DNA of 64,000 nt. Origin: Candidatus Aenigmatarchaeota archaeon (GTDB taxonomy: Archaea > Aenigmatarchaeota > Aenigmatarchaeia > GW2011-AR5). The notes below the pieces were generated by a model, which ran no database searches, had not been told where the DNA came from, and was given only the letters and a program-made list of their open reading frames with translations. Of this stretch, positions 285 through 55,756 are shown one piece after another. The stretch covers positions 263,303 through 327,302 of the forward strand of contig JACPRW010000003.1 in assembly GCA_016193585.1 (NCBI GenBank), in the 5' to 3' direction. Each line of letters begins with the position of its first letter. The stretch's first letter is position 1. Made by a program: the position numbers and the translations under genes.

Positions 285-494
285 TGCGAGGGGTCGGATT
301 CGAACCGACGAACCCACTAAGGGACGAGATAGCACAAAAGCCTTGTTGCCCTTAAAGCCCTTGGCTCTTTCTTGAGTGTCGCTGTCATCGGAATTGTTCC
401 TGCAAACTCACGGATGGCTCGCGCCTTTTTCTGTCGTCCCTTGAGACCATGCAAGCAGCCTTCATTCGAACGGCTGTGACTTGGCTACCCTCGC
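285..494 (-). tRNA. tRNA-Leu(CAA) with four predicted introns (plus coordinates 450-477, 429-444, 378-417, 331-370); mature length 86 nt
   Basis: Acceptor GCGAGGG/CCCTCGC, T-arm GTCGG-TTCGAAT-CCGAC, Leu variable arm; anticodon arm CGAGA-CTCAAGA-TCTCG reconstitutes only after removing the inserts; intron 1 has a BHB with perfect central and upper helices. Confidence 0.85.
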
Positions 495-609: not shown

Positions 610-1047
610 TCAGTGCAATTCCTGCAACTCTTTTCTGAGCGCCGCAAGCTGGTGCTGGAGGTCGGAGAGCGAGCCCTCGATATGACGTATCTCTATCTCG
701 CCCGGCGTTTCGATCTCGAACCCCTTCGGCCTGAGCAGTTCCGAGTCCACTTCAGTAACGGTCTTCTCGAGGCGCTGGACCGTCGCGCGGAGCATCTTGA
801 TCGCGTCAGCGCGCACCGCCTCGACGTCGTTGACGACGCCGAGCAGCTGCTTGACGCCCTCGATGAAGACTTTCATCTCCTGGACGTCGGAAAGGATTTC
901 CCGGTATTTTTCAACCTTGACAAACAGCGGCGCCGACATCGGCGCAGCAGGCTCCTGGACTATTTCCTGCTGCTGTGGCGCGGGATACGGTTCTTCTATG
1001 GCCTGCTTTATCTCCTTGGTCTCCTGCTTTTTTGCATGGAAGAACAT
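610..1047 (-). CDS. Conserved-looking hypothetical coiled-coil protein
   Basis: 145-aa ORF with host-like codon usage, PLFVKVEKY motif. Confidence 0.7.
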   Translation of the reverse strand: MFFHAKKQETKEIKQAIEEPYPAPQQQEIVQEPAAPMSAPLFVKVEKYREILSDVQEMKVFIEGVKQLLGVVNDVEAVRADAIKMLRATVQRLEKTVTEVDSELLRPKGFEIETPGEIEIRHIEGSLSDLQHQLAALRKELQELH

Positions 1048-1199: not shown

Positions 1200-1313
1200 T
1201 TGGTTCACTTACACCCAAAAAGCAAAGCTTTTTGGTGCACCGGAAAACTTTGTTTTCCGCGTGTAGCGGACAACAAAAGTAATATGTCGGTATTCTTTTG
1301 TTGGTCCACTATA
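1200..1313. repeat. Composite palindromic repeat: end of module A + double hairpin X1 (1212-1263) + module D (1264-1313)
   Basis: Near-identical to 10510-10623; D also at 21185-21236 in the opposite orientation. Confidence 0.9.
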
Positions 1314-2195: not shown

Positions 2196-2373
2196 CGCCG
2201 AGAGCAGGAATTCCAGACGGTTTCTTTTGGTTGAGCTTTTCTTTCCAAAAGAAAAGGTCATTTGAACCTGCGCGTGCCAGAGGCACACTAGCTCTCAAGG
2301 ATCGCCTGTCATCTCATGTTGATCAAACCTTGAGTTGGCATCTAGCGCGTTTACCAAGTTCCGCCATCTCGGC
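2196..2373 (-). tRNA. tRNA-Ser(UGA) with introns at 30/31 (2301-2341) and 59/60 (2210-2260)
   Basis: Acceptor GCCGAGA/TCTCGGC, long variable arm, BHB helices CGCT/GGCG and TTCA/TGGA; mature 86 nt. Confidence 0.9.
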
Positions 2374-2402: not shown

Positions 2403-2552
2403 TGCTCAAAGAACTCAAGTTCTTTGGCATCTCAAAGAAGCTTTGCTTCTTTGCAGATATGGTGAATTGCACTGGTTATGTCCTGATATTATTTGCAATT
2501 CACCTATAGAAAATTGCGCGTTAATACGACATAAGCTGCGCAATTATCTATA
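2403..2552. repeat. Composite palindromic repeat: double hairpin + module H (2458-2508) + module I (2505-2552)
   Basis: H-I pair recurs (reverse complement, with nested inserts) at 42255-42478. Confidence 0.9.
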
Positions 2553-3500: not shown

Positions 3501-3965
3501 ATGATAGACGTCACCGATATGGAGATATTGAAGGAGTTGAGCAAAAATTCCAAGAGAAAAATTCATCAATTGGCAGGCGTGCTGCGCTACCCGCGCTCAA
3601 CCATCCATAACAGAATAAGGAAGATGGAGAAAAGCGGCATCATCAGGACGTACATAGCTGTTATTGACCATGCAAAAATAGGCAGGCCAGTCGCCGCGTT
3701 TGTGCACCTCGTCATAACTTCCAAGCAGAGCGCTCACGAGATTGCAAACAAACTCAAAAGCTTCCCCTACGTCGAGGAGGTGCACGTGGTAACAGGGCAA
3801 TATGATATCATTGCCAAGGTCAGGTTCAAGGATACCGAAGATCTGGGAAAATTCATCTTCGACGAGGAGAAGGGCCTGCGCACCATGGAAGGCGTCGACA
3901 GGACGGAAACGATGATTGTCGTGAACACCGAGAAGGAATACGGTCTCGTCCAGAAAGAAAAGTGA
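3501..3965 (+). CDS. Lrp/AsnC family transcriptional regulator
   Basis: N-terminal HTH (D..ILKEL..NS..STIHNRIRKMEKSGII) plus AsnC ligand domain (VTGQYD). Confidence 0.95.
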   Translation: MIDVTDMEILKELSKNSKRKIHQLAGVLRYPRSTIHNRIRKMEKSGIIRTYIAVIDHAKIGRPVAAFVHLVITSKQSAHEIANKLKSFPYVEEVHVVTGQYDIIAKVRFKDTEDLGKFIFDEEKGLRTMEGVDRTETMIVVNTEKEYGLVQKEK

Positions 3966-4533: not shown

Positions 4534-4659
4534 CGCCGGCGGCAGGATTTTCAACGAGGAAGCGGTCTTCCTCGATTTTGAACCTGCATGTCCGAAGGAC
4601 ACCAGTTTTCGAGATTCGCCCGCCATGTCTGGCGCACTGCCAAGTTATGCGACGCCGGC
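4534..4659 (-). tRNA. tRNA-Ser(CGA) with introns at 30/31 (4615-4628) and 59/60 (4548-4576)
   Basis: Acceptor GCCGGCG/CGCCGGC; perfect BHB helices CGCC/GGCG and TTCA/TGAA; mature 83 nt. Confidence 0.92.
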
Positions 4660-4888: not shown

Positions 4889-5837
4889 CGTTATCCTAAA
4901 ATGGGATGCGACGCAGCATTCGAAAAATGCTGCGGGGCATTGCGCCTGCGGCACGAAGGGCATCTACTACCGGCGCTGGGAAGGGAAGTACTACTGCGCC
5001 TCCTGCTTCGCCCGTCAGGTGGAGACGCGTTTCAGGAAAACGGTCAGCGCCAACAAACTTGTTCGAAAGGGCGAGCGGGTGGCCGTTGCGCTGAGCGGCG
5101 GGAAGGACTCCGCTGCGCTGCTGTATCTGCTGAACGAGCTGCGGAAACATATGCCCTTCACGCTCGTTGCCGTCAGTGCCGACGAAGGCATCACCGGCTA
5201 CAGGGATGCAAGCCTCGAAAAAGCGGAAGAGCTTACGAAAATGCTCGGCGTCGAGCACCACACTGCGTCGTTTGCCGAGGCGTTTGCCGTGACGACAGAC
5301 GACATCGAAAAGAAGCACTGCACGTACTGCGGCGTGTTCCGCCGTTATCTGCTCAACAAGAAAGCACATGAGCTGGGCGCAGACAAGCTTGCCGTCGGCC
5401 ATAACCTCGACGACGAAGCGCAGAGCATCCTCATGAATTTCTTCAGGGGCGACATCGCCCGATTCCATCGCCTGGGCGCGAAGCCGGCGTCAGGCGGCGA
5501 CGGTTTTGTGCCACGCATCAAGCCGCTGCGCGACATTCCGGAGAAGGAAACAGCGCTGTATGCGCTCGTCAGGAATCTGCCCTTTTCCGGCAGCGAGTGC
5601 CCGCATTCCTTCGACAACCTGCGCAGGGACGTGCAGGCGATGGTCAACGGCTTGGAAGCGAAGTATCCCGGCACCAAGATGCAGATTGTCAGCTTCTACG
5701 ACAGGCTGAAGCCGTCACTGACAGCAGCCCGCAAGGAGGCAATTGCGCACTGCGCCCAGTGCGGCGAGCCTTCTTCCGGCGGCGTGTGCAAGGCATGCGA
5801 GCTTCTGGGAAAGGTGCGCAGCGCTAAATTTTTATAA
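4881..5837 (+). CDS. ncsA: tRNA 2-thiolation protein (TtuA/NcsA, TIGR00269-like)
   Basis: SGGKDS PP-loop, CTYCGVFRR, GHNLDD, terminal Zn fingers; start approximate. Confidence 0.9.
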   Translation: MDSVILKWDATQHSKNAAGHCACGTKGIYYRRWEGKYYCASCFARQVETRFRKTVSANKLVRKGERVAVALSGGKDSAALLYLLNELRKHMPFTLVAVSADEGITGYRDASLEKAEELTKMLGVEHHTASFAEAFAVTTDDIEKKHCTYCGVFRRYLLNKKAHELGADKLAVGHNLDDEAQSILMNFFRGDIARFHRLGAKPASGGDGFVPRIKPLRDIPEKETALYALVRNLPFSGSECPHSFDNLRRDVQAMVNGLEAKYPGTKMQIVSFYDRLKPSLTAARKEAIAHCAQCGEPSSGGVCKACELLGKVRSAKFL

Positions 5838-7431: not shown

Positions 7432-8286
7432 ATGCTCGTCACCAAATCGATTCTGAAGAACGTTTACAAGCCGCGCACGCCGTGGGCCCACAAAGGCAAC
7501 TTCGGCTCCTTGCTGGTGGTCGGCGGCTCGCGCATGTACAGCGGCACGGTTGCCTTCAATGCGCTGGCTGCTTTGCGCGCGGGCTGCGACCTGGTTACCA
7601 TTGCTGCTCCGGAACGGGCTGCTGACACAGCTGCAGCGTTTTCTCCGGACATCATAGCATACCCCCTGAAGGGCGATTTCCTTGCTGCAAGGCACCTGAA
7701 AGAGCTTGAGAAGCTTAAGGAAGGAAAGGATGCGCTTGTTGTTGGCGGAGGCATGGGAAGGGAAAAGGAAACGATGGATGCAATTAATACATTTTTGTCG
7801 GGCATCGAAATCCCTTCGGTGATAGACGCAGATGCAATCCACGCGGTGGCCGGAAACAGAAAGGTCATACAAAGCAATTTCGTCATTACGCCGCATACGG
7901 TCGAATTTCACGTGCTGACAGGAGAAAAGGCGGGCAATGATGTCAAGGAACGGGCGCTTCAGGCAAAAAAATATGCCGCAGAATTCAGATGCACGGTAGT
8001 GCTGAAAGGCCACGTCGACGTAATCTCCGACGGCACGCGAACCGCGCTCAACAGGACAGGCTCGCCGTACATGACCAAGGGCGGAACCGGCGATACGCTC
8101 GCTGGGATATGTGGCTCGCTGCTCGCGCAGGACAATGACCCCTTCACTGCAGCGTGCGCCGCGGCGTACATCAACGGCAAGGCAGGAGAAATCGCTGCAA
8201 AAGAGAAGAGACAGGGACTTCTTGCGTCGGACATTATTGAAAAGATACCCGAAGCCGTCAGAGATCATGTGCATAATGCTTCCTGA
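7432..8286 (+). CDS. nnrD: ADP-dependent NAD(P)H-hydrate dehydratase
   Basis: HKGNFG..VVGGS..YSG, TPH..EF, KGGTGDTLAG. Confidence 0.93.
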   Translation: MLVTKSILKNVYKPRTPWAHKGNFGSLLVVGGSRMYSGTVAFNALAALRAGCDLVTIAAPERAADTAAAFSPDIIAYPLKGDFLAARHLKELEKLKEGKDALVVGGGMGREKETMDAINTFLSGIEIPSVIDADAIHAVAGNRKVIQSNFVITPHTVEFHVLTGEKAGNDVKERALQAKKYAAEFRCTVVLKGHVDVISDGTRTALNRTGSPYMTKGGTGDTLAGICGSLLAQDNDPFTAACAAAYINGKAGEIAAKEKRQGLLASDIIEKIPEAVRDHVHNAS

Positions 8287-8719
8287 TTATCGGCACCGCT
8301 CCTTTCGGCACGAGGTGCTCCCATCGTTTGCCTTGCTTGATGAGCGCCCTTATTCTGGTTGCGCTGTACGTCTTTGGCTTCAGCGCGTTCGGCCTTACGG
8401 TCTTGTAACCCGTGAAACATCGCTGCACCTGCCGGTTGCCGGTGACGATGACATCGAAGCGGGATTTTTTCTGTATGAGCGCCGCCCACGCGGCATCAGA
8501 AGGCATGTCAGGTACGCCGATAATCCTGCATGGTGAAGGCAGCGCAGCCCGCAGCATCGCCGCCCGTTCTCTGAACGAGAAAGGGTTTTTTTCGTCGTGT
8601 TTGTTAATGCTCCCGACAGCGATGATAATGCTGTCGTAGCGCTGCAGCAGGCGCTCTGCGGCGAATACATGCCCCTTGTGAAGCGGCTGGAACCTGCCGA
8701 TGAAGAGCGCCGCCGCCAT
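8258..8719 (-). CDS. nadM: Nicotinamide-nucleotide adenylyltransferase
   Basis: GRFQPLHKGH, NPFS..ER, SAT.IR. Confidence 0.92.
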   Translation of the reverse strand: MAAALFIGRFQPLHKGHVFAAERLLQRYDSIIIAVGSINKHDEKNPFSFRERAAMLRAALPSPCRIIGVPDMPSDAAWAALIQKKSRFDVIVTGNRQVQRCFTGYKTVRPNALKPKTYSATRIRALIKQGKRWEHLVPKGAVPIIRKHYAHDL

Positions 8720-10377: not shown

Positions 10378-10623
10378 TATAGTGAACCAAGTAAATAATC
10401 AGGTATTATAGCAATACAAGGAAATAAACAGGATATATTACTTCCTTGTTTGCTATATGTGAAACAAGAAGCAATATGCCGATGTTATTTTCTTGTTTCA
10501 CTATATAGCTTGGTTCACGTACACCCAAAAAGCAAAGCTTTTTGGTGCACCGGAAAACCTTGTTTTCCGCGTGTAGCGGACAACAAAAGTAATATGTCGG
10601 TATTCTTTTGTTGGTCCACTATA
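10378..10623. repeat. Nested composite repeat: A split by B (10407-10457) + C (10454-10505), then X1 (10522-10573) and D (10574-10623)
   Basis: Each module recurs elsewhere or shares the consensus; junctions are TA/TATA. Confidence 0.9.
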
Positions 10624-21299: not shown

Positions 21300-21418
21300 C
21301 GCCCCCGGCGCGATTCGAACGCGCGACCCCCTGCTCTCAACAGGAATCTTCATCCGGGCAGAGCCCGTCAGTTCACCTCTAGGAGGCAGGTGCTCTATCC
21401 AAACTGAGCTACAAGGGC
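21300..21418 (-). tRNA. tRNA-Arg(CCU), intron at about 37/38 (21336-21379)
   Basis: Cloverleaf with CCTGC/GCAGG anticodon stem; BHB central helix is poor. Confidence 0.85.
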
Positions 21419-31242: not shown

Positions 31243-31464
31243 TCACGTTTTCAGGGACGCAGCCGGGAATTGAACCCGGGATAAAGGATTCACAGCCCTT
31301 TGTGTTTTCACTACACCACCGCAGCCATTGGCAACAGTAAAAGAGACGTAATCTCCAGAAGCAAGCCCCAGGGACCTTCGTATGTCTGCCGGGACGAATA
31401 CCCTGCCCTTCGCGTCGAGGCAGTATCGTCCGTTGCCGGAGATGACTACCCTGCGATTGGGCAA
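31243..31464 (-). CDS. AbrB/MazE/SpoVT-like DNA-binding protein whose 3' end reads through a tRNA-His-like sequence
   Basis: LDAKGRVFVPADIRRSLGL..GDYV motif; TTG start. Confidence 0.6.
   Translation of the reverse strand: MPNRRVVISGNGRYCLDAKGRVFVPADIRRSLGLASGDYVSFTVANGCGGVVKTQRAVNPLSRVQFPAASLKT
31255..31326 (-). tRNA. Second, intronless and atypical tRNA-His(GUG)
   Basis: G-1:C73, AAGGG-CTGTGAA-TCCTT anticodon arm, CCGGG-TTCAATT-CCCGG T-arm; C2.U71 mismatch and D-loop lacking GG. Confidence 0.75.
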
Positions 31465-31713: not shown

Positions 31714-31808
31714 TATAGTTAACCAAGTAAAGAATCCGGATATTATAACTTGGTTCACTATATGTGACCAACTTGTGTAATACCTGAATATTAAGTTGGT
31801 CAGCTATA
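31714..31808. repeat. Two single-hairpin modules: A' (31714-31762) + J (31759-31808)
   Basis: TATAG...CTATA termini, shared TATA junction, AATNCNGGATATTAT-like loop. Confidence 0.85.
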
Positions 31809-31923: not shown

Positions 31924-32706
31924 ATGACAAAATTAAATCTCATACGTCCTTTAGCTTTCATTGACTTAGAAACTACTGGTCTCAATACGCAACAAGATCG
32001 TATTGTAGATATATGCGTAACAAAAATTTACCCAGATGGAAAAGAAGAATCATTGAGTTCTTTTATTAATCCAACTATACTGATTTCTGTTGAAGCTACA
32101 AATATCCATGGCATAACAAATGCAGATGTTGAAGGTAAACCAGTTTTTGGAGAATTTTCATCACAATTATTTGATTTTATAGATGGATGTGACTTGGCCG
32201 GATTCGGAATAATAAAGTTCGATTTTCCTGTTCTTGAATCTGAATTCAAGAGAGCCGGAATAGTTTTTTCAAAAGATGGCAGACAAATAGTCGATGTTCA
32301 AAATATTTATCACAAATTAGAACCCAGAGATTTAAGTGCCGCACACTTAAGGTACTGTGGCAAGGTTTTAGAAAATGCACATAGAGCACAGTCCGATGTT
32401 AAGGCAACTATAGATGTGCTTGAATCTCAATTGGAACACCACACTAATTTGCCACATGATATTTTCGGTCTGAATGAATTTTGCAACCCGAAAGACCCTA
32501 CGTGGATTGATGAGGACGGAAAATTTGCATGGTTTAAGGACGAGGCTATTGTAAATTTTGGAACTCACAAAAGCAAGACACTTCAATCTATATGTAGGGA
32601 TAAACCTGACTACCTTCAATGGATTATAAGTAAAGATTTCTCACCGAAGGTCAAACAGATAGCTGAAGACGCCCTTCGAGGCAAATTCCCAATACGGCAA
32701 GCATAA
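31924..32706 (+). CDS. DEDDh 3'-5' exonuclease (DnaQ/PolIII epsilon-like), AT-rich
   Basis: FIDLETTG, FD, HRAQSDV; far more AT-rich than neighbours by eye. Confidence 0.92.
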   Translation: MTKLNLIRPLAFIDLETTGLNTQQDRIVDICVTKIYPDGKEESLSSFINPTILISVEATNIHGITNADVEGKPVFGEFSSQLFDFIDGCDLAGFGIIKFDFPVLESEFKRAGIVFSKDGRQIVDVQNIYHKLEPRDLSAAHLRYCGKVLENAHRAQSDVKATIDVLESQLEHHTNLPHDIFGLNEFCNPKDPTWIDEDGKFAWFKDEAIVNFGTHKSKTLQSICRDKPDYLQWIISKDFSPKVKQIAEDALRGKFPIRQA

Positions 32707-32723: not shown

Positions 32724-32820
32724 TATAGCTCTACAAGGAAACAACCAAGATATTATTTCCTTGTGAGCTATATGTGAAACCAGTTGTAATATATCCAGAT
32801 TATTTACTGGTTTCACTATA
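32724..32820. repeat. Two single-hairpin modules: K (32724-32772) + F (32769-32820)
   Basis: Same consensus as the other modules. Confidence 0.85.
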
Positions 32821-34357: not shown

Positions 34358-34930
34358 ATGGCGCGGAAAAGAAAAACAGCCACGAAGACGCTGCAGGAAA
34401 TTGAGAAGAAAGAGGAAGCAATCGAGAAGATCGAGGAACGCATCGAGCAGCTGGAGGAGAAAGACCAGGAAACGCTGGAGAAAATAGAGCAGAAAGAGGA
34501 AGCAATCGAGCAGATAGAGGAGCGCATTGAGAAAGCCATCGTGGGCTTGGGTAATTTCACCCTCAAGAAAAGCTATCTGCTCGAGACGACGCGCGCGCTC
34601 GCTGGCGCAGCGCTCGGCGTGAGCGTCGGCATGGGGCTGCGCATCATCCCGGAAATCGCCGAAAACCTGCCGTGGGTCAATATCGCCGGCATCCTGATGT
34701 TCATCGTGTTCGTGGCCATCGTGCTCATCTACCGCACGGAGCGCGTCACCGGAAGAGGTCATGTCCTCGGCAAGCTGTTCGAAATAGTGTTCATTTCCCT
34801 GATGGTCGAGATCACGGCACTGTCGCTCTTCAATATATTGCCGCCAGACGCCGAAAGCGTGGTGAAGGTGCTTGTTGTCGGCCTGTTCCCGACGATGTCA
34901 GGGGCAATTACGTTCAGGATAATGGATTGA
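34358..34930 (+). CDS. Membrane protein with N-terminal 28-aa coiled-coil repeat
   Basis: KEEAIEKIEERIE / KEEAIEQIEERIE repeat then 4 TM. Confidence 0.7.
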   Translation: MARKRKTATKTLQEIEKKEEAIEKIEERIEQLEEKDQETLEKIEQKEEAIEQIEERIEKAIVGLGNFTLKKSYLLETTRALAGAALGVSVGMGLRIIPEIAENLPWVNIAGILMFIVFVAIVLIYRTERVTGRGHVLGKLFEIVFISLMVEITALSLFNILPPDAESVVKVLVVGLFPTMSGAITFRIMD

Positions 34931-34931
34931 G

Positions 34932-35029
34932 GGCCGCTGCCGAGATTTGAACTCGGTCCGAAGGCTCACCGCAGCACGTTCGCCAAGTGCATCCACAGGC
35001 CTGCATGCTGCCGTTACACCACAGCGGCC
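34932..35029 (-). tRNA. tRNA-His(GUG), canonical intron (34967-34992), encoded G-1
   Basis: Acceptor GCCGCTG/CAGCGGC, loop CTGTGG|A, BHB CTGT/GCGG. Confidence 0.9.
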
Positions 35030-42254: not shown

Positions 42255-42681
42255 TATAGATAATTGCGCAGCTTATGTCGTATTATAGCAATACAAGGAA
42301 ATAAACACGATATTACTTCCTTGTTTGCTATATGTGAAGCAAATGTATAATATCGGTATTATTTATTTGCTTCACTATAACGCGCAATTTTCTATAGGTG
42401 AATTGCAAATAATATCAGGACATATAGTGAACCAAGTAAATAATCAGGTATCCACTATAACCAGTGCAATTCACCATACATGCAGAAGCAATGCTTCTGC
42501 TGTACAGGTGGAACAGAGTTCCACCATGTATCTTGAAGAGCAAATCTCTTCGAGGTGCTCAAAAACCAAAGGGTTTTTGGCATGCCAAAGAAGCGCAGCT
42601 TCTTTGAGCATGGCAGAAAGCATGCGCTTTCTGAGCACGACACGCGTAATATGGGATACGACGCACGGAGTGCGGGGTATT
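42255..42681. repeat. Large nested array: I[B+E] + H[A/D remnant] + X3 + four-hairpin chain + Z motif
   Basis: Comparison with uninterrupted H-I at 2458-2552 and with 54803-55061. Confidence 0.9.
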
Positions 42682-42870
42682 ATGGGACGAATCAAGACTG
42701 CCGATATCAAGAAGGCTTCAGGGGAACTTCTGTCTGCCTATAGCAACAAGTTCTCAACCGATTTTGCAGCCAATAAAGAGGTACTCAAGGAGTTCAATAT
42801 CACTGACGAGAAGCGGACCAAGAACAAGATAGCCGGTTACATCACGCGGAAGATGAGGCAGCGGGCGTAG
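42682..42870 (+). CDS. rps17e: 30S ribosomal protein S17e
   Basis: MGRIKT...F..DF..NK...KRTKNKIAGYIT; true start 42682 (the ORF-track N-terminus is repeat-derived). Confidence 0.95.
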   Translation: MGRIKTADIKKASGELLSAYSNKFSTDFAANKEVLKEFNITDEKRTKNKIAGYITRKMRQRA

Positions 42871-43408: not shown

Positions 43409-43610
43409 TATAGTGAAGCAAATAAATAATACCGATATTATACATTTGCTTCACATACATGGTAAAGCAAAGCTTTACCTGTACGGGTGAAACGTTGTTT
43501 CACCATGTATAGCAAACAAGGAAGTGATACAAGGTGGATTCCATGAATCCACCTGTACAGGAGAATCTTCGATTCTCCTCGTATCGTGTTTATTTCCTTG
43601 TATTGCTATA
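43409..43610. repeat. Composite E (43409-43457) + X2 (43458-43507) + B interrupted by X5 (43530-43581)
   Basis: Recurs at 44765-44912 (inverted, without X5) and 51634-51771 (truncated). Confidence 0.92.
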
Positions 43611-44764: not shown

Positions 44765-44912
44765 TATAGCAATACAAGGAAATAAACACGATAGTACTTC
44801 CTTGTTTGCTATACATGGTGAAACAACGTTTCACCTGTACAGGTAAAGCTTTGCTTTACCATGTATGTGAAGCAAATGCATAACATAGGTGTTATTTATT
44901 TGCTTCACTATA
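44765..44912. repeat. Composite B + X2 (44814-44863) + E
   Basis: Inverted copy of the 43409 composite. Confidence 0.92.
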
Positions 44913-49145: not shown

Positions 49146-49509
49146 TCTTGAATGCCTTGAAAATTGCTGCCATCGTACAAAAGACTTCCGTGAAGTCTTT
49201 TGGCGACTTAGGTTAATCCTCGATTAACCTCAAGTCAGGCAGCAGATGCAAAGAAAAGCAACGCTTTTCTTGCACTGGAAGACTGCACGTCTTCCTTGTG
49301 CAACAAGGCATTCGGGATCTTCAAAGAGCAGAGCTCTTTGAGATCTCAAAAACCTCTGGTTTTTGCAGATGCCATGCTCCACGGAAACCACCGACTGCAG
49401 TCGGTGGTATAGAGGAGCATATCATGCTGAACATACAGTATAGCAGGTTCGAACGAAAAGTTCCAGTATTATTCGAACCTGCTATAAGGGAAACCTGAGG
49501 TTTCCCTTG
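49146..49509. repeat. Continuous ~360-bp array of hairpins including an AGATCT-linked double hairpin (49317-49370) and module L (49439-49486)
   Basis: At least nine perfect or near-perfect stems read directly from the sequence. Confidence 0.85.
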
Positions 49510-49518
49510 GGTCCTCAA

Positions 49519-49636
49519 TGGGCCCGGCAGGAATTGAACCTGCGACCTTCGCCGTTTCTTCAACACTTTCCTTCTGAAAGCTTAGTGAAGGCGACATTTG
49601 GTAGACACTCGTCTCATACCACTAGACTACAGGCCC
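49519..49636 (-). tRNA. tRNA-Val(CAC) with introns at about 23/24 (49598-49614) and 36/37 (49556-49584)
   Basis: BHB helices GGTA/TACC and CTTC/GAAG; only these boundaries give a 7-nt anticodon loop; mature 72 nt. Confidence 0.88.
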
Positions 49637-50887: not shown

Positions 50888-51654
50888 AGGTTTCGCCTGT
50901 AAAAACAGGAAAGATTGTCGCCGGGCAGGACCTCTATTCTTTGCTCGACACGTGCCTGGAAACATGCGAAGAAAAATCACTGCTCGCCATCACGTCCAAG
51001 ATAGTTGCTCTATGCGAAGGCCGCATCGCCAGCATGGATGCGGACAAAAAAGCCCTTATACAGCAGGAAGCCGAATATTATCTGCCTCATGAAGAAAGCA
51101 GATACAACACCACGCTTGCGATAAAAGGGAACATCATCGTCCCTGCTGCTGGCGTGGACGAATCGAATGGCAACGGCTGCTACGTGCTGTGGCCTTTGGA
51201 CCCGCAGAAATCAGCGAATGAGATACGGTCGTACCTGCGCAAAAGATTCTTTCTGAAGCATGCCGGCGTGCTTATAACCGACAGCAGGACAACGCCGCTG
51301 AGACGGGGGACGACGGGTGTCGGCATCGCGCATAGCGGCTTTTCCGCCATCAAAAATTACATAGGTCGTAAAGACGTATTCGGCCGTACGATGAAGATAA
51401 CCAGGGCAAACATACTGGATGCTCTGGCAGCAGCAGCCGTCGTCGTTATGGGAGAAGGTGCAGAACAGACGCCCCTTGCTGTACTCGAGGACATCCCGTT
51501 AGTGGCGTTTCAGGAAAGGAACCCGACACGAAAAGAGCTGCAAGACCTGAGCATAAGCATCGAGGACGACCTGTACGCGCCTATCCTCAAAAGGGCGAAA
51601 TGGAAGAAGGGAGGGCAATATAAAAAATCTTTTTATAGTGAAGCAAATAAATAA
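50884..51654 (+). CDS. CofE-like gamma-glutamyl ligase (putative folate polyglutamylation, FolC2-like)
   Basis: ITSKIVALCEG, AGVDESN, ITDSRTTPLRRG, GEG.EQTP; C-terminal YSEANK* comes from repeat E. Confidence 0.85.
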   Translation: MKVSPVKTGKIVAGQDLYSLLDTCLETCEEKSLLAITSKIVALCEGRIASMDADKKALIQQEAEYYLPHEESRYNTTLAIKGNIIVPAAGVDESNGNGCYVLWPLDPQKSANEIRSYLRKRFFLKHAGVLITDSRTTPLRRGTTGVGIAHSGFSAIKNYIGRKDVFGRTMKITRANILDALAAAAVVVMGEGAEQTPLAVLEDIPLVAFQERNPTRKELQDLSISIEDDLYAPILKRAKWKKGGQYKKSFYSEANK

Positions 51655-51771
51655 TACCGATATTATACATTTGCTTCACATACATGGTAAAGCAAAGCTT
51701 TACCTGTACAGGTGAAACGTTGTTTCACCATGTATAGCAAACAAGGAAGTAATACAAGGTGGATTCCATGA
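51634..51771. repeat. Truncated composite E + X2 + B/X5
   Basis: Near-identical to 43409-43546. Confidence 0.92.
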
Positions 51772-54802: not shown

Positions 54803-55061
54803 CTTGAAGAGCAAAGATCTTCGAGTTGCTCAAAAACCAAAGGGTTTTTGGCGTGCCAAAGAAGTGCAGCTTCTTTTGGGCATGTAGAAAGCACGTGCTT
54901 TCTGAGCACGACGCAGCATACAACAAGGAGTTCCGAAGAACTCCTTGTGTACACAAAGACTTTCGAAGAAAGTCTTTGTTGTAAGCCAAGCGTTGCTGCG
55001 GGGCATGGTCCATTTAATATGGGATACGACGCAGCATAAGCCAAGCGTTGCTGCGGGGTAT
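54803..55061. repeat. Four-hairpin chain + duplicated Z motif, first copy interrupted by double hairpin X4 (54921-54981)
   Basis: Homologous to 42532-42681; local filled/empty pair with TA duplication. Confidence 0.9.
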
Positions 55062-55331
55062 TTAGACAAGCGTCACGTCGCCTGCCTCGACGCTCTCGAC
55101 GTCGGGAATAGCTGCAAGAGCCTTTTCAATGGCGTCGGTTCCGTGGGCATCGGGCATGAGCAGCAGCACGCTAAGCGCCTTGAGGCCGAATGCTATCGGC
55201 TTTTCCTCGATGCTCTGCAGCTTGACGTCCTGTACCGCGCTGGCAGCGCCGCGTATCGCCTCCTTGATGCGTTCCAGGTTGGCGTCAGGCGATGCGGGCA
55301 TGACCTGCAATGTTACCGCAACAGTTCCCAT
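55062..55331 (-). CDS. ef1b: Translation elongation factor 1-beta
   Basis: VMPASPD, IEEKPIAFGLKAL. Confidence 0.95.
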   Translation of the reverse strand: MGTVAVTLQVMPASPDANLERIKEAIRGAASAVQDVKLQSIEEKPIAFGLKALSVLLLMPDAHGTDAIEKALAAIPDVESVEAGDVTLV

Positions 55332-55514: not shown

Positions 55515-55631
55515 AGTCGAATCACTCAAGTAACGTGCGTTTATTCGGCTGTAATCTTTTTAAATGTATAATCGCACACCTGTGTAGACGGGCTCCTGTG
55601 GCCTCATGAACAGGAAGAGTGGTTGACGAAA

Positions 55632-55756
55632 GCCCTTGTAGTCTAGCTTGGATATCTGAGGAAAGCAGAGCTTTCCAAGATCTCGAAAAACAGGTTTTTC
55701 GAAGAGGACACGAGGTTGCGGACCTCGGAACCCGGGTTCAAATCCCGGCGGGGGCA
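55632..55756 (+). tRNA. tRNA-Arg(GCG) with a D-loop intron (about 55654-55704) made of a double hairpin
   Basis: CGAGG-TTGCGGA-CCTCG anticodon arm; D-stem GTCT/GGAC restored on removing 51 nt. Confidence 0.9.

Follow-up and report, generated by a model that had tools for sequence, protein, structure and literature searches.

A D-loop intron of an archaeal tRNA-Arg(GCG) gene that belongs to a dispersed family of intergenic double hairpins

Non-canonical archaeal tRNA introns, which can occur several per gene and for which late gain by "transposition" has been described, are known (PMC4090602, PMC4033280, PMC3293823). The present work concerns a 64-kb stretch of archaeal DNA (the window), in which a tRNA-Arg(GCG) gene holds a 51-nt intron in its D-loop, and the relation of this intron to double-hairpin repeats dispersed through intergenic DNA. 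Like the bulge-helix-bulge (BHB) introns of archaea, it is a short insert outside position 37/38 whose removal restores the cloverleaf; several introns per gene are likewise found in relatives, and the likeness extends to DPANN archaea, with their relaxed endonucleases and heavily disrupted tRNA genes (PMC4090602, PMC4033280, PMC3239211, PMC5829648). Unlike the catalogued BHB introns, it has only a relaxed motif at its junction, and its body belongs to a repeat family that is also found free between genes. The transposed introns of the Thermoproteales (2010, Mol Biol Evol 27:2233, as described in PMC4090602) are alike in their late, DNA-level gain and in the presence of related introns at different places; as far as that description goes, similar introns are common to different tRNA genes there, whereas the present intron has its relatives among intergenic hairpin repeats. 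In the same account, transposition was inferred, and the donor and mechanism were given as not known (PMC4090602). The mobile-element model for Caldiarchaeum (PMC3293823) likewise combines intron gain through a mobile element with heterogeneity among close relatives, but the element there is 1.8 kb long and encodes a recombinase, whereas the candidate here is a non-coding double hairpin of ~54 nt.

The repeats themselves resemble the bacterial repetitive extragenic palindromic (REP) sequences, together with their BIME and REPIN arrangements, in being 20-30-nt imperfect palindromes with a 4-nt tag by the stem, in occurring as singles, inverted doublets and mosaic clusters, and in being almost solely intergenic and persistent across related genomes (PMC2817692, PMC3116915, PMC3733652). 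The 4-nt tag beside a bulged stem also recalls the ends of REP/RAYT and IS200/IS605 systems (PMC2817692, PMC6006769). However, the REP tag is GTAG or CGTC and the stems are G/C-rich, whereas the tag here is ATCT, the stems are A/T-rich, and the host is archaeal. REPs are mobilized by RAYT transposases; here, Pfam scans of 40 open reading frames (ORFs) of the window gave no gene of the RAYT or IS200/IS605 type. A literature search that covered few subscription journals found no described tRNA intron belonging to a dispersed intergenic hairpin-repeat family. To our knowledge, REPs are not found as tRNA introns.

Three facts meet at this locus: the intron and the repeats form one family, the same gene has empty, filled and differently filled sites in different relatives, and a sister element was caught inside an intron. 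Together, they offer a testable lead on the origin of non-canonical archaeal tRNA introns. On balance, it seems probable, though by no means assured, that REP-like double-hairpin elements colonize tRNA introns or intron sites, are tolerated through splicing, and are then conserved.

The features that carry the comparison are given below. The DNA covered comprised 64 kb of the window genome and 3-21 kb per relative; the relatives include L025 (GCA_016187335.1), L029 (GCA_016180945.1), L027 (GCA_016198625.1), L017 (GCA_053537135.1) and L023 (GCA_053536475.1). Three covariance models were used: R1 was built from four intergenic units only, R2 from two introns only, and R3 from intergenic alpha copies only.

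55632-55756 (+): tRNA-Arg(GCG) gene, intron included, 125 nt; spliced form recognized by ARAGORN, partial Rfam match at 55693-55748
55632-55653 (+): 5′ exon, with acceptor strand, D-stem 5′ strand and D-loop through position 20a (...AGCTTGGAT)
55654-55704 (+): 51-nt D-loop intron, corresponding to one beta-type double-hairpin element (homologous L025 intron; R1 match)
55654-55681 (+): intron hairpin 1, an ATCT-(bulge)-stem-ARA loop-stem-AGAT unit (regular-expression census, R1, compensatory change against L025)
55683-55702 (+): intron hairpin 2, TCGAAAAAC AG GTTTTTCGA (two compensatory pairs against L025)
55705-55756 (+): 3′ exon, with A21, D-stem 3′ strand, anticodon arm (GCG), T arm, acceptor strand and discriminator A
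55648-55651 (+): exon TTGG (tRNA positions 17-19), candidate 5′ strand of the BHB central helix, with intron 55699-55702 (TCGA) as partner (drawn by hand)
49317-49370 (-): beta-type double hairpin, intergenic (R2, shuffle tests)

Cutting 55654-55704 out of the gene leaves a 74-nt tRNA-Arg(GCG) with a normal cloverleaf, which is accepted by ARAGORN, and places the insert between D-loop positions 20a and 21. The unspliced gene was called neither by ARAGORN nor by Rfam at the gathering threshold; at a relaxed threshold, Rfam aligned just its 3′ two thirds. The intron is laid out as ATCT-GA-(GGAAAGC AGA GCTTTCC)-A-AGATCT-(CGAAAAAC AG GTTTTTCG)-AAG. Both hairpins are perfect: the first pairs GGAAAGC with GCTTTCC around an AGA loop and is closed by ATCT/AGAT, and the second pairs TCGAAAAAC with GTTTTTCGA around an AG loop. 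The last four bases of hairpin 2, TCGA, can pair instead with exon TTGG. A C/D-box small RNA inside the intron was considered and rejected, as a C box is lacking and L025 does not share the CUGA.

An earlier note on this DNA had claimed that the intron shares its double-hairpin architecture with the intergenic element at 49317-49370. Its letters for both regions agree exactly with our re-reading, and the kinship was borne out by R1, R2 and shuffle tests. The minus strand of the element reads ATCTG-CAAAAACC-AGA-GGTTTTTG-AGATCTC-AAAGAGC-TCT-GCTCTTT-GAAGAT, and it belongs to a hairpin array of 430 nt that has a tRNA gene on one side and, on the other, a gene named from its sequence alone as diphosphomevalonate-decarboxylase-like. 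On the minus strand, R2 detected 49319-49370 with 51.8 bits (E = 4.3e-11), aligning the start (ATCTG), the loop context (CAGAG), the linker (AGATCTC) and the terminal GAAG; the plus strand gave 38.7 bits, and other double hairpins of the same geometry reached 20-31 bits. In the opposite direction, R1 detected the introns with 31.2 bits (E = 1.7e-5) and 30.1 bits (E = 3.6e-5; window 55654-55681); its true units scored 43-49.5 bits, the two introns ranked next, and every other hairpin scored 24.6 bits or less. Hairpin 2 of the intron scored 18.5 bits with R1, on the minus strand. Since the models built from introns and from intergenic units each detect the other set, the intron and the intergenic double hairpin are of one family in sequence and structure.

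A census with a regular expression (ATCT, 0-2 nt, a perfect stem of at least 6 bp, a 2-6-nt loop, the stem, 0-2 nt, and AGAT or AGGT) found five units in the window (2429-2458, 42530-42556, 49317-49344, 49343-49370, and intron hairpin 1), compared with 0.06 expected per shuffled window, and two in L025 (6077-6104 and its intron). In global alignments against hairpin-preserving shuffles, the similarity of the intron to 49317-49370 exceeded that of shuffled hairpins (p = 1.2e-3 on the plus strand and 4e-4 on the minus strand), as did that of the L025 intron (p = 1.1e-3, minus strand). The best local match of the intron within the window was 49317-49370 (p = 0.017 after window-wide correction). 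The boundaries of intron and element coincide within 2 nt (element ATCT...GAAGAT, intron ATCT...GAAG). Directly 5′ of ATCT, four of the intergenic units have TGGC, and the two tRNAs have TGGAT or TGGAC. An origin of 49317-49370 as a decayed tRNA-Arg copy was rejected, as there is no exon similarity on its 3′ side, and the recurrence of TGGC 5′ of other units marks it as family context rather than an exon remnant.

The intron is old. L025 carries a homologous intron of the same length at the same site, with 40 of 51 bases identical, and its FEN-1 is 66-67% identical to that of the window. The 11 differences between the introns include three compensatory pairs (12-18, G-C to U-A; 33-46, A-U to G-C; 35-44, A-U to U-A), one gained pair (6-24), one change from U-A to a U-G wobble, and two loop bases. 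Pairing was found in 97.5% of cells, compared with 18-60% when the partner was slid by 1-3 columns. The introns are 78% identical and the exons ~73% (spliced sequences, hand count), so that the conservation of the intron matches that of the tRNA; this rules out a recent hit by one of the window's own repeats. Because the homologous intron lies at the same site, with its hairpins kept by compensatory changes, the event would predate the split from L025, and the structure is probably under selection. The earlier note's derivation of the intron from the repeats therefore fails if it is taken as recent.

The syntenic tRNA-Arg(GCG) gene was obtained from 13 relatives, and the inserts were found to differ widely:

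Window: D-loop 20a/21, 51 nt, beta type; no other inserts
L025: D-loop, 51 nt, homologous to that of the window, at 3808-3858 (-); canonical 37/38 intron, 42 nt
L017: D-loop, 33 nt, unrelated; T-arm insert, 31 nt
L020: D-loop, 11 nt, unrelated; canonical intron, 42 nt
L029: D-loop, 66 nt, unrelated; canonical intron, 99 nt
L008, L018, L021, L022: D-loop site empty; no other inserts (74-nt genes)
L023: D-loop site empty; T-arm insert
L024: D-loop site empty; canonical and T-arm inserts
L026: D-loop site empty; canonical intron
L027: D-loop site empty; three other inserts

Aligning the gene across relatives, as the earlier note had suggested, gave the outcome foreseen there: the insert is absent in 8 orthologues, and 3 others have shorter or unrelated inserts without the beta double hairpin. 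R2 detected none of the D-loop inserts of L017, L020 and L029, and their homology to the window intron was accordingly dropped. Across the junction, marked here by a slash, the intronless orthologues read AGCYTGGAT/AGGAC. The spliced forms of the window, L025, L029, L017, L020, L018, L026 and L027 were each recognized by ARAGORN as a 74-nt tRNA-Arg(GCG), and that of L023, with approximate boundaries, as 76 nt. L027 is the closest relative of L025 (FEN-1 79% identical), and its uninterrupted D-loop, AGCCTGGACA, is the spliced junction predicted for L025. A metagenome scan with the exon pattern, made in search of closer relatives, found two orthologues, both intronless. Synteny is lost in L001, with no tRNA there, and L019 has no tRNA at the syntenic site.

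The intergenic DNA of the window is full of arrays of short hairpins, with an 8-9-bp A-rich 5′ arm and a 3-nt loop, together with longer TATAG...CTATA hairpins. Perfect hairpins of at least 7 bp with A-rich 5′ arms are concentrated in about ten intergenic arrays. Two types of double hairpin share one architecture and form separate families, with conserved ATCT/AGAT tags in the beta type and ACAT/ATGT tags in the alpha type. The copies that bear on the comparison, besides 49317-49370, are:

2407-2458 (-): hairpin CAAAGAACT/AGTTCTTTG, then a beta-type single unit
1211-1264 (-): double hairpin (CCAAAAAGC.. / CGGAAAAC..), with a duplicate at 10521-10574 (repeat family D6)
42475-42531 (+): alpha-type double hairpin, CATACATG-hairpin-CTGTACAG-hairpin-CATGTAT (repeat family D4, alignment A3, R3)

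A degenerate relative reported previously at 2403-2460 was confirmed: a different hairpin at 2407-2426 comes before a clean single unit, ATCT-CAAAGAAGC-TTT-GCTTCTTTG-C-AGAT, at 2429-2458. A near-identical counterpart of this pair is present in L023 at 8283-8335 (R1 44.6 bits for 8308-8335; R2 29.5 bits for 8283-8335). The double hairpin at 1211-1264 and its duplicate are weaker matches (R2 29.4 and 25.7 bits; R1 24.6 bits). The window, L025 and L023 have beta units whose stems (CAAAGAGC) are identical although their sites are not orthologous, and copies detected by R2 are also present in L025, L023, L008 and L029. Further alpha copies lie in the window at 43454-43510, 43527-43584, 44810-44866 and 51679-51735, and the alpha type also occurs in L017, L018 and L023. 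Taking R1, R2 and R3 together, copies were found in the window, L008, L017, L018, L023, L025 and L029.

Insertion of such an element into a tRNA intron was observed in L029. The ends of its canonical 37/38 intron are homologous to the introns of L025 and L020, and ~53 nt of extra sequence form a block in the middle (alignment A4), which R3 matched with 45.9 bits (E = 7e-9). A dispersed alpha double hairpin has thus inserted into a pre-existing tRNA intron, and the corresponding sites of L020 and L025 are empty. A possible TG duplication flanks the insert; at two bases, it is too short to judge. The earlier note had proposed that mobile hairpins seed or expand tRNA introns, or that excised introns reintegrate. 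The shared family behind this proposal holds, and expansion was observed in L029; no mobility enzyme was found among the 40 ORFs scanned.

Several other hairpins were noted. In L029, the stretch from the promoter box to the start of the tRNA-Arg(GCG) gene holds a beta-like double hairpin at 2465-2516 (-) (R2 26.9 bits), so that tRNA leaders too are occupied by these elements. T-rich-first hairpins of the form CTTTTCTTT-NNN-AAAGAAAAG (window 2236-2256, L025 1270-1290) recur in the intergenic DNA of several genomes, and similar ones lie inside orthologous tRNA-Arg inserts, namely the D-loop insert of L029 and the T-arm inserts of L017 and L027. A nested hairpin was seen in intergenic DNA: AAGCTACC-TAT-GGTAGCTT has a 3-nt loop in L018 at 5145-5163 (-), and in L019 at 780-831 (-) a second hairpin sits in the loop of the same stem. 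The nested hairpin of L019 is AAGCCACC-TTC-GGTGGCTT, and a related AAGCCACC-TCT-GGTGGCTT is present at 1175-1193 of the window.

The BHB motif, which also has relaxed hBH and HBh′ forms, places a 3-nt bulge on either side of a 4-bp central helix. Each strand of this helix is four bases long and stops 2 nt short of a splice site, the exon strand before the 5′ site and the intron strand before the 3′ site. Applied to the window intron, this rule gives the candidate helix TTGG/TCGA, which contains two G-U pairs, with bulges AT/A and AG/A (slashes mark the splice sites). The same register gives CTGG/CCGA in L025, TTGG/CCGA in L017, TTGG/ACAA in L020 and TTGG/CCAG in L029, so that each of the five orthologous D-loop inserts can form 3-4 pairs, as drawn by hand. 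The canonical 37/38 intron of L025, by contrast, has a perfect TTGC/GCAA helix. Other registers, including TTGG/CCAA with hairpin 1, were tried in search of a canonical BHB, and were rejected for giving the wrong mature sequence or for not being conserved in L025. The insert is best read, from its sequence and that of its orthologues, as an archaeal protein-spliced intron that would be excised by EndA. Neither EndA nor RtcB is encoded among the 40 ORFs scanned. The EndA of ARMAN archaea cuts relaxed motifs (PMC3239211), and a DPANN EndA with an extra (L3) loop has been reported alongside heavily disrupted tRNA genes (PMC5829648).

How a repeat may have become an intron can be outlined as follows. 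A beta element comprises ATCT, a bulged base, an 8-bp A-rich stem, an ARA loop, a palindromic AGATCT linker, a second stem of 8-9 bp, and (A)AGAT. In an ancestor common to the window and L025, one such element would have landed at a D-loop intron site, or replaced the interior of an intron there. The insert would have been tolerated because the splicing endonuclease removes it. Selection would then have kept the hairpins, presumably since an intron that folds on itself spares the folding of the tRNA, and it would also leave the exon YTGG/intron YCGA helix and the two 3-nt bulges free for cleavage. In most lineages, the intron would later have been lost or its content turned over. We infer the direction from element to intron, the reason for conservation, and mobility at the DNA level.

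Several observations weigh against this explanation. A run of five T residues lies at 55695-55699, inside the intron, in the 3′ arm of hairpin 2; in L025, the run is absent. Because oligo-T is a termination signal in archaea, the run could terminate transcription within the gene, and the tRNA-Arg gene may pay a transcriptional cost for it. Only a relaxed BHB can be drawn, with non-canonical flanking helices, and its 4-bp central helix, with two G-U pairs, competes with the base of hairpin 2 and is missing from the minimum-free-energy fold. The covariation comes from two sequences, and its shuffle control was not significant (61/500 shuffles reached three compensatory pairs). The E-values of the covariance models were calibrated on random, not hairpin-rich, sequence. 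The single-gene FEN-1 tree is a star at 64-74% identity, in which the window is not the sister of L025, so that one old gain followed by many losses is indistinguishable from lateral spread. No target-site duplication was found around the window intron (GGAT/.../AGGAC), and the Pfam scans of the 40 ORFs revealed no transposase, RAYT-like or reverse transcriptase gene. The ATCT...AGAT ends are inverted, as the definition of a miniature inverted-repeat transposable element would have it, but they are simply the base of each hairpin. Finally, the stems are low-complexity A/T runs, which could converge.

A bolder form of the same idea, in which double-hairpin elements are mobile and the direct source of non-canonical introns, inserting beside YTGG-type sites or into introns, being neutralized by a relaxed endonuclease, and then becoming fixed and conserved, is conceivable but doubtful. 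If true, it would provide the first known donor for archaeal tRNA introns that were gained late, and no REP-like system with a way of escape at the RNA level would have been identified before.

The low complexity of the stems leads to the alternative that the hairpins share no common descent, and that all were shaped by the same constraints, such as bidirectional T-rich termination, stability hairpins, or a single binding protein. A-rich 5′ arms and T-rich 3′ arms are indeed found throughout the window, identical stems occur at non-orthologous sites in different genomes, and shuffling of the stems alone did not lower the similarity significantly (p = 0.065). The last result indicates that the signal lies mainly in the flanks, loop and linker, and it is in these parts, which a hairpin does not need, that intron and element agree: both start with ATCTG and end in GAAG, and both have the CAGAG loop context, the AGATCTC linker and one bulge, four pairs away from the base. 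With R2, the scores of other double hairpins of this geometry fall 20-30 bits short, and the boundaries of intron and element coincide within 2 nt. Since the shared features are the non-pairing parts, pure convergence is unlikely.

The opposite direction of descent was also considered, in which a conserved D-loop intron is the source, and excised (often circularized) introns, or DNA copies of them, reintegrated to give the beta repeats. The intron is old and conserved, and joining its ends gives GAAG/ATCT, which contains the AGATCT of its own central linker; moreover, 49317-49370 shares AGC-AGA-GCT and AGATCTC with the window intron, where the L025 intron has ATC-AGA-GAT and AGGTCTC. However, the intron is a single instance, whereas the intergenic family is much more numerous and varied, with singles, doublets and mosaics with alpha and other elements in at least four genomes. 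The intergenic copies also end in ATCT...AGAT, a complete palindrome that the 3′ end of the intron lacks. On these grounds, size, diversity and completeness of the ends, the passage from intron to repeat is the less parsimonious. No reverse transcriptase is encoded among the ORFs scanned, and in L029 an element is seen entering an intron. An origin of the repeats from the intron is thus quite improbable.

Retention of the insert in the mature tRNA as a D-loop expansion, or decay of the gene to a pseudogene, would suit the poor BHB, the T run that could end transcription, and the position of the insert, as 20a/20b is the length-variable part of the D-loop. It is nonetheless scarcely credible, given that the exons form a perfect cloverleaf behind a conserved TATA-like box, that L025 keeps the insert with compensatory changes, that the same gene has inserts at classical positions in relatives (with the good 37/38 BHB of L025), and that non-canonical introns are documented in DPANN archaea, whose EndA variants are tied to disrupted tRNA genes (PMC5829648, PMC3239211).

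Returning to the gene that hosts the intron, its surroundings are well conserved.

55553-55565 (+): AATCTTTTTAAAT, archaeal TATA-like box 5′ of tRNA-Arg(GCG) (read from the sequence)

This box is probably the promoter; AATCTTTTTAA is present upstream of the orthologous tRNA in L018, L019, L020, L023, L026 and L029. A glycosyltransferase gene lies on one side of the tRNA gene, and genes for a Zn-ribbon aS21-like protein, EF-1beta and FEN-1 lie on the other; the order tRNA-Arg(GCG), Zn-ribbon aS21-like, EF-1beta, FEN-1 is kept in relatives. The locus is 100% identical in four other, independent assemblies (runs SRR121134xx), and its sequence is therefore not an assembly artefact. Strain-level polymorphism was sought in these same four contigs, which carry the window's FEN-1; being identical, they were uninformative. 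The nearest FEN-1 proteins are 64-70% identical, several of them from Candidatus Aenigmarchaeota/Aenigmatarchaeota, and none in the protein collection exceeds 70%, which points to a DPANN archaeon with no close sequenced relative as the host. The other genes of the window are housekeeping genes, and include a histidine operon, HisRS, a class I aminoacyl-tRNA synthetase, fibrillarin/Nop5, mevalonate-pathway kinases and pilus genes. For a DPANN archaeon, it is unusual to have a his operon that is almost complete.

Other tRNA genes of the window are also interrupted, or escape detection:

21300-21418 (-): tRNA-Arg(CCT) with a 44-nt canonical intron; missed by default ARAGORN and by Rfam at the gathering threshold
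4534-4659 (-): class II Ser(CGA)-like tRNA with a T-loop insert (hairpin 4555-4574) and a second insert; missed by standard finders
285-494 (-): possible class II tRNA, a candidate; missed by standard finders
49519-49636 (-): tRNA with two inserts, identity uncertain; found by Rfam, called Gly(ACC) by ARAGORN

As standard finders miss several tRNA genes in this window, the tRNA sets of DPANN archaea that were built from metagenomes are likely to be under-called. The claim that the T-loop introns of two tRNA-Ser genes contain similar stems held for one gene, the Ser(CGA)-like one, whose insert has an 8-bp stem and a 4-nt loop at 4555-4574; for the second gene, 285-494 (-) is a candidate. Searching the other tRNA introns of the window with the repeat covariance models, a check proposed along with that claim, yielded no further member: neither the T-loop insert nor the other introns were matched by R1, R2 or R3, and R2 found no other tRNA intron of the beta type. 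The canonical intron of tRNA-Gly(GCC), ATCTTCTGAAAAACCTCGTGTATGCAGA at 1359-1386 (gene 1322-1422, +), shares ATCT, AAAAACCTC and GCAGA with 49343-49369, and the hairpin is not kept; that region is its best match in the window (p = 0.06, dinucleotide shuffles), and kinship to the beta type is not claimed. Two tRNA-His(GTG) genes, at 31254-31325 (-) and 34932-35028 (-), both have G-1 and C73. Of these, one is interrupted by a canonical intron of 26 nt. The second has no intron but an acceptor-stem mismatch, and it ends 18 nt upstream of the hisG start, in the orientation of the histidine operon; a role as a leader or as a regulatory tRNA-like element is possible.

Further repeats were noted in the window. 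The TATAG...CTATA hairpins are ~48 nt long, with large AT-rich loops, and form a family separate from the beta and alpha types. They are mostly paired, and lie at 10407-10455, 31714-31762, 32724-32772, 42284-42332, 43409-43457, 44765-44813 and 51634-51682, together with their partners; one pair brackets an RNase T-like exonuclease gene (31924-32706). An in-frame repeat of ~63-84 nt at 34388-34531, in an ORF with no Pfam match, encodes an E/K/I-rich, coiled-coil-like segment. A structured element, TAATATGGGATACGA-(CGCAGC.. hairpin ..GCTGCG)-GGGTATT, is present in three copies (4897-4945, 42647-42690 and 55015-55065), one of which lies just upstream of EF-1beta, near the tRNA-Arg locus.

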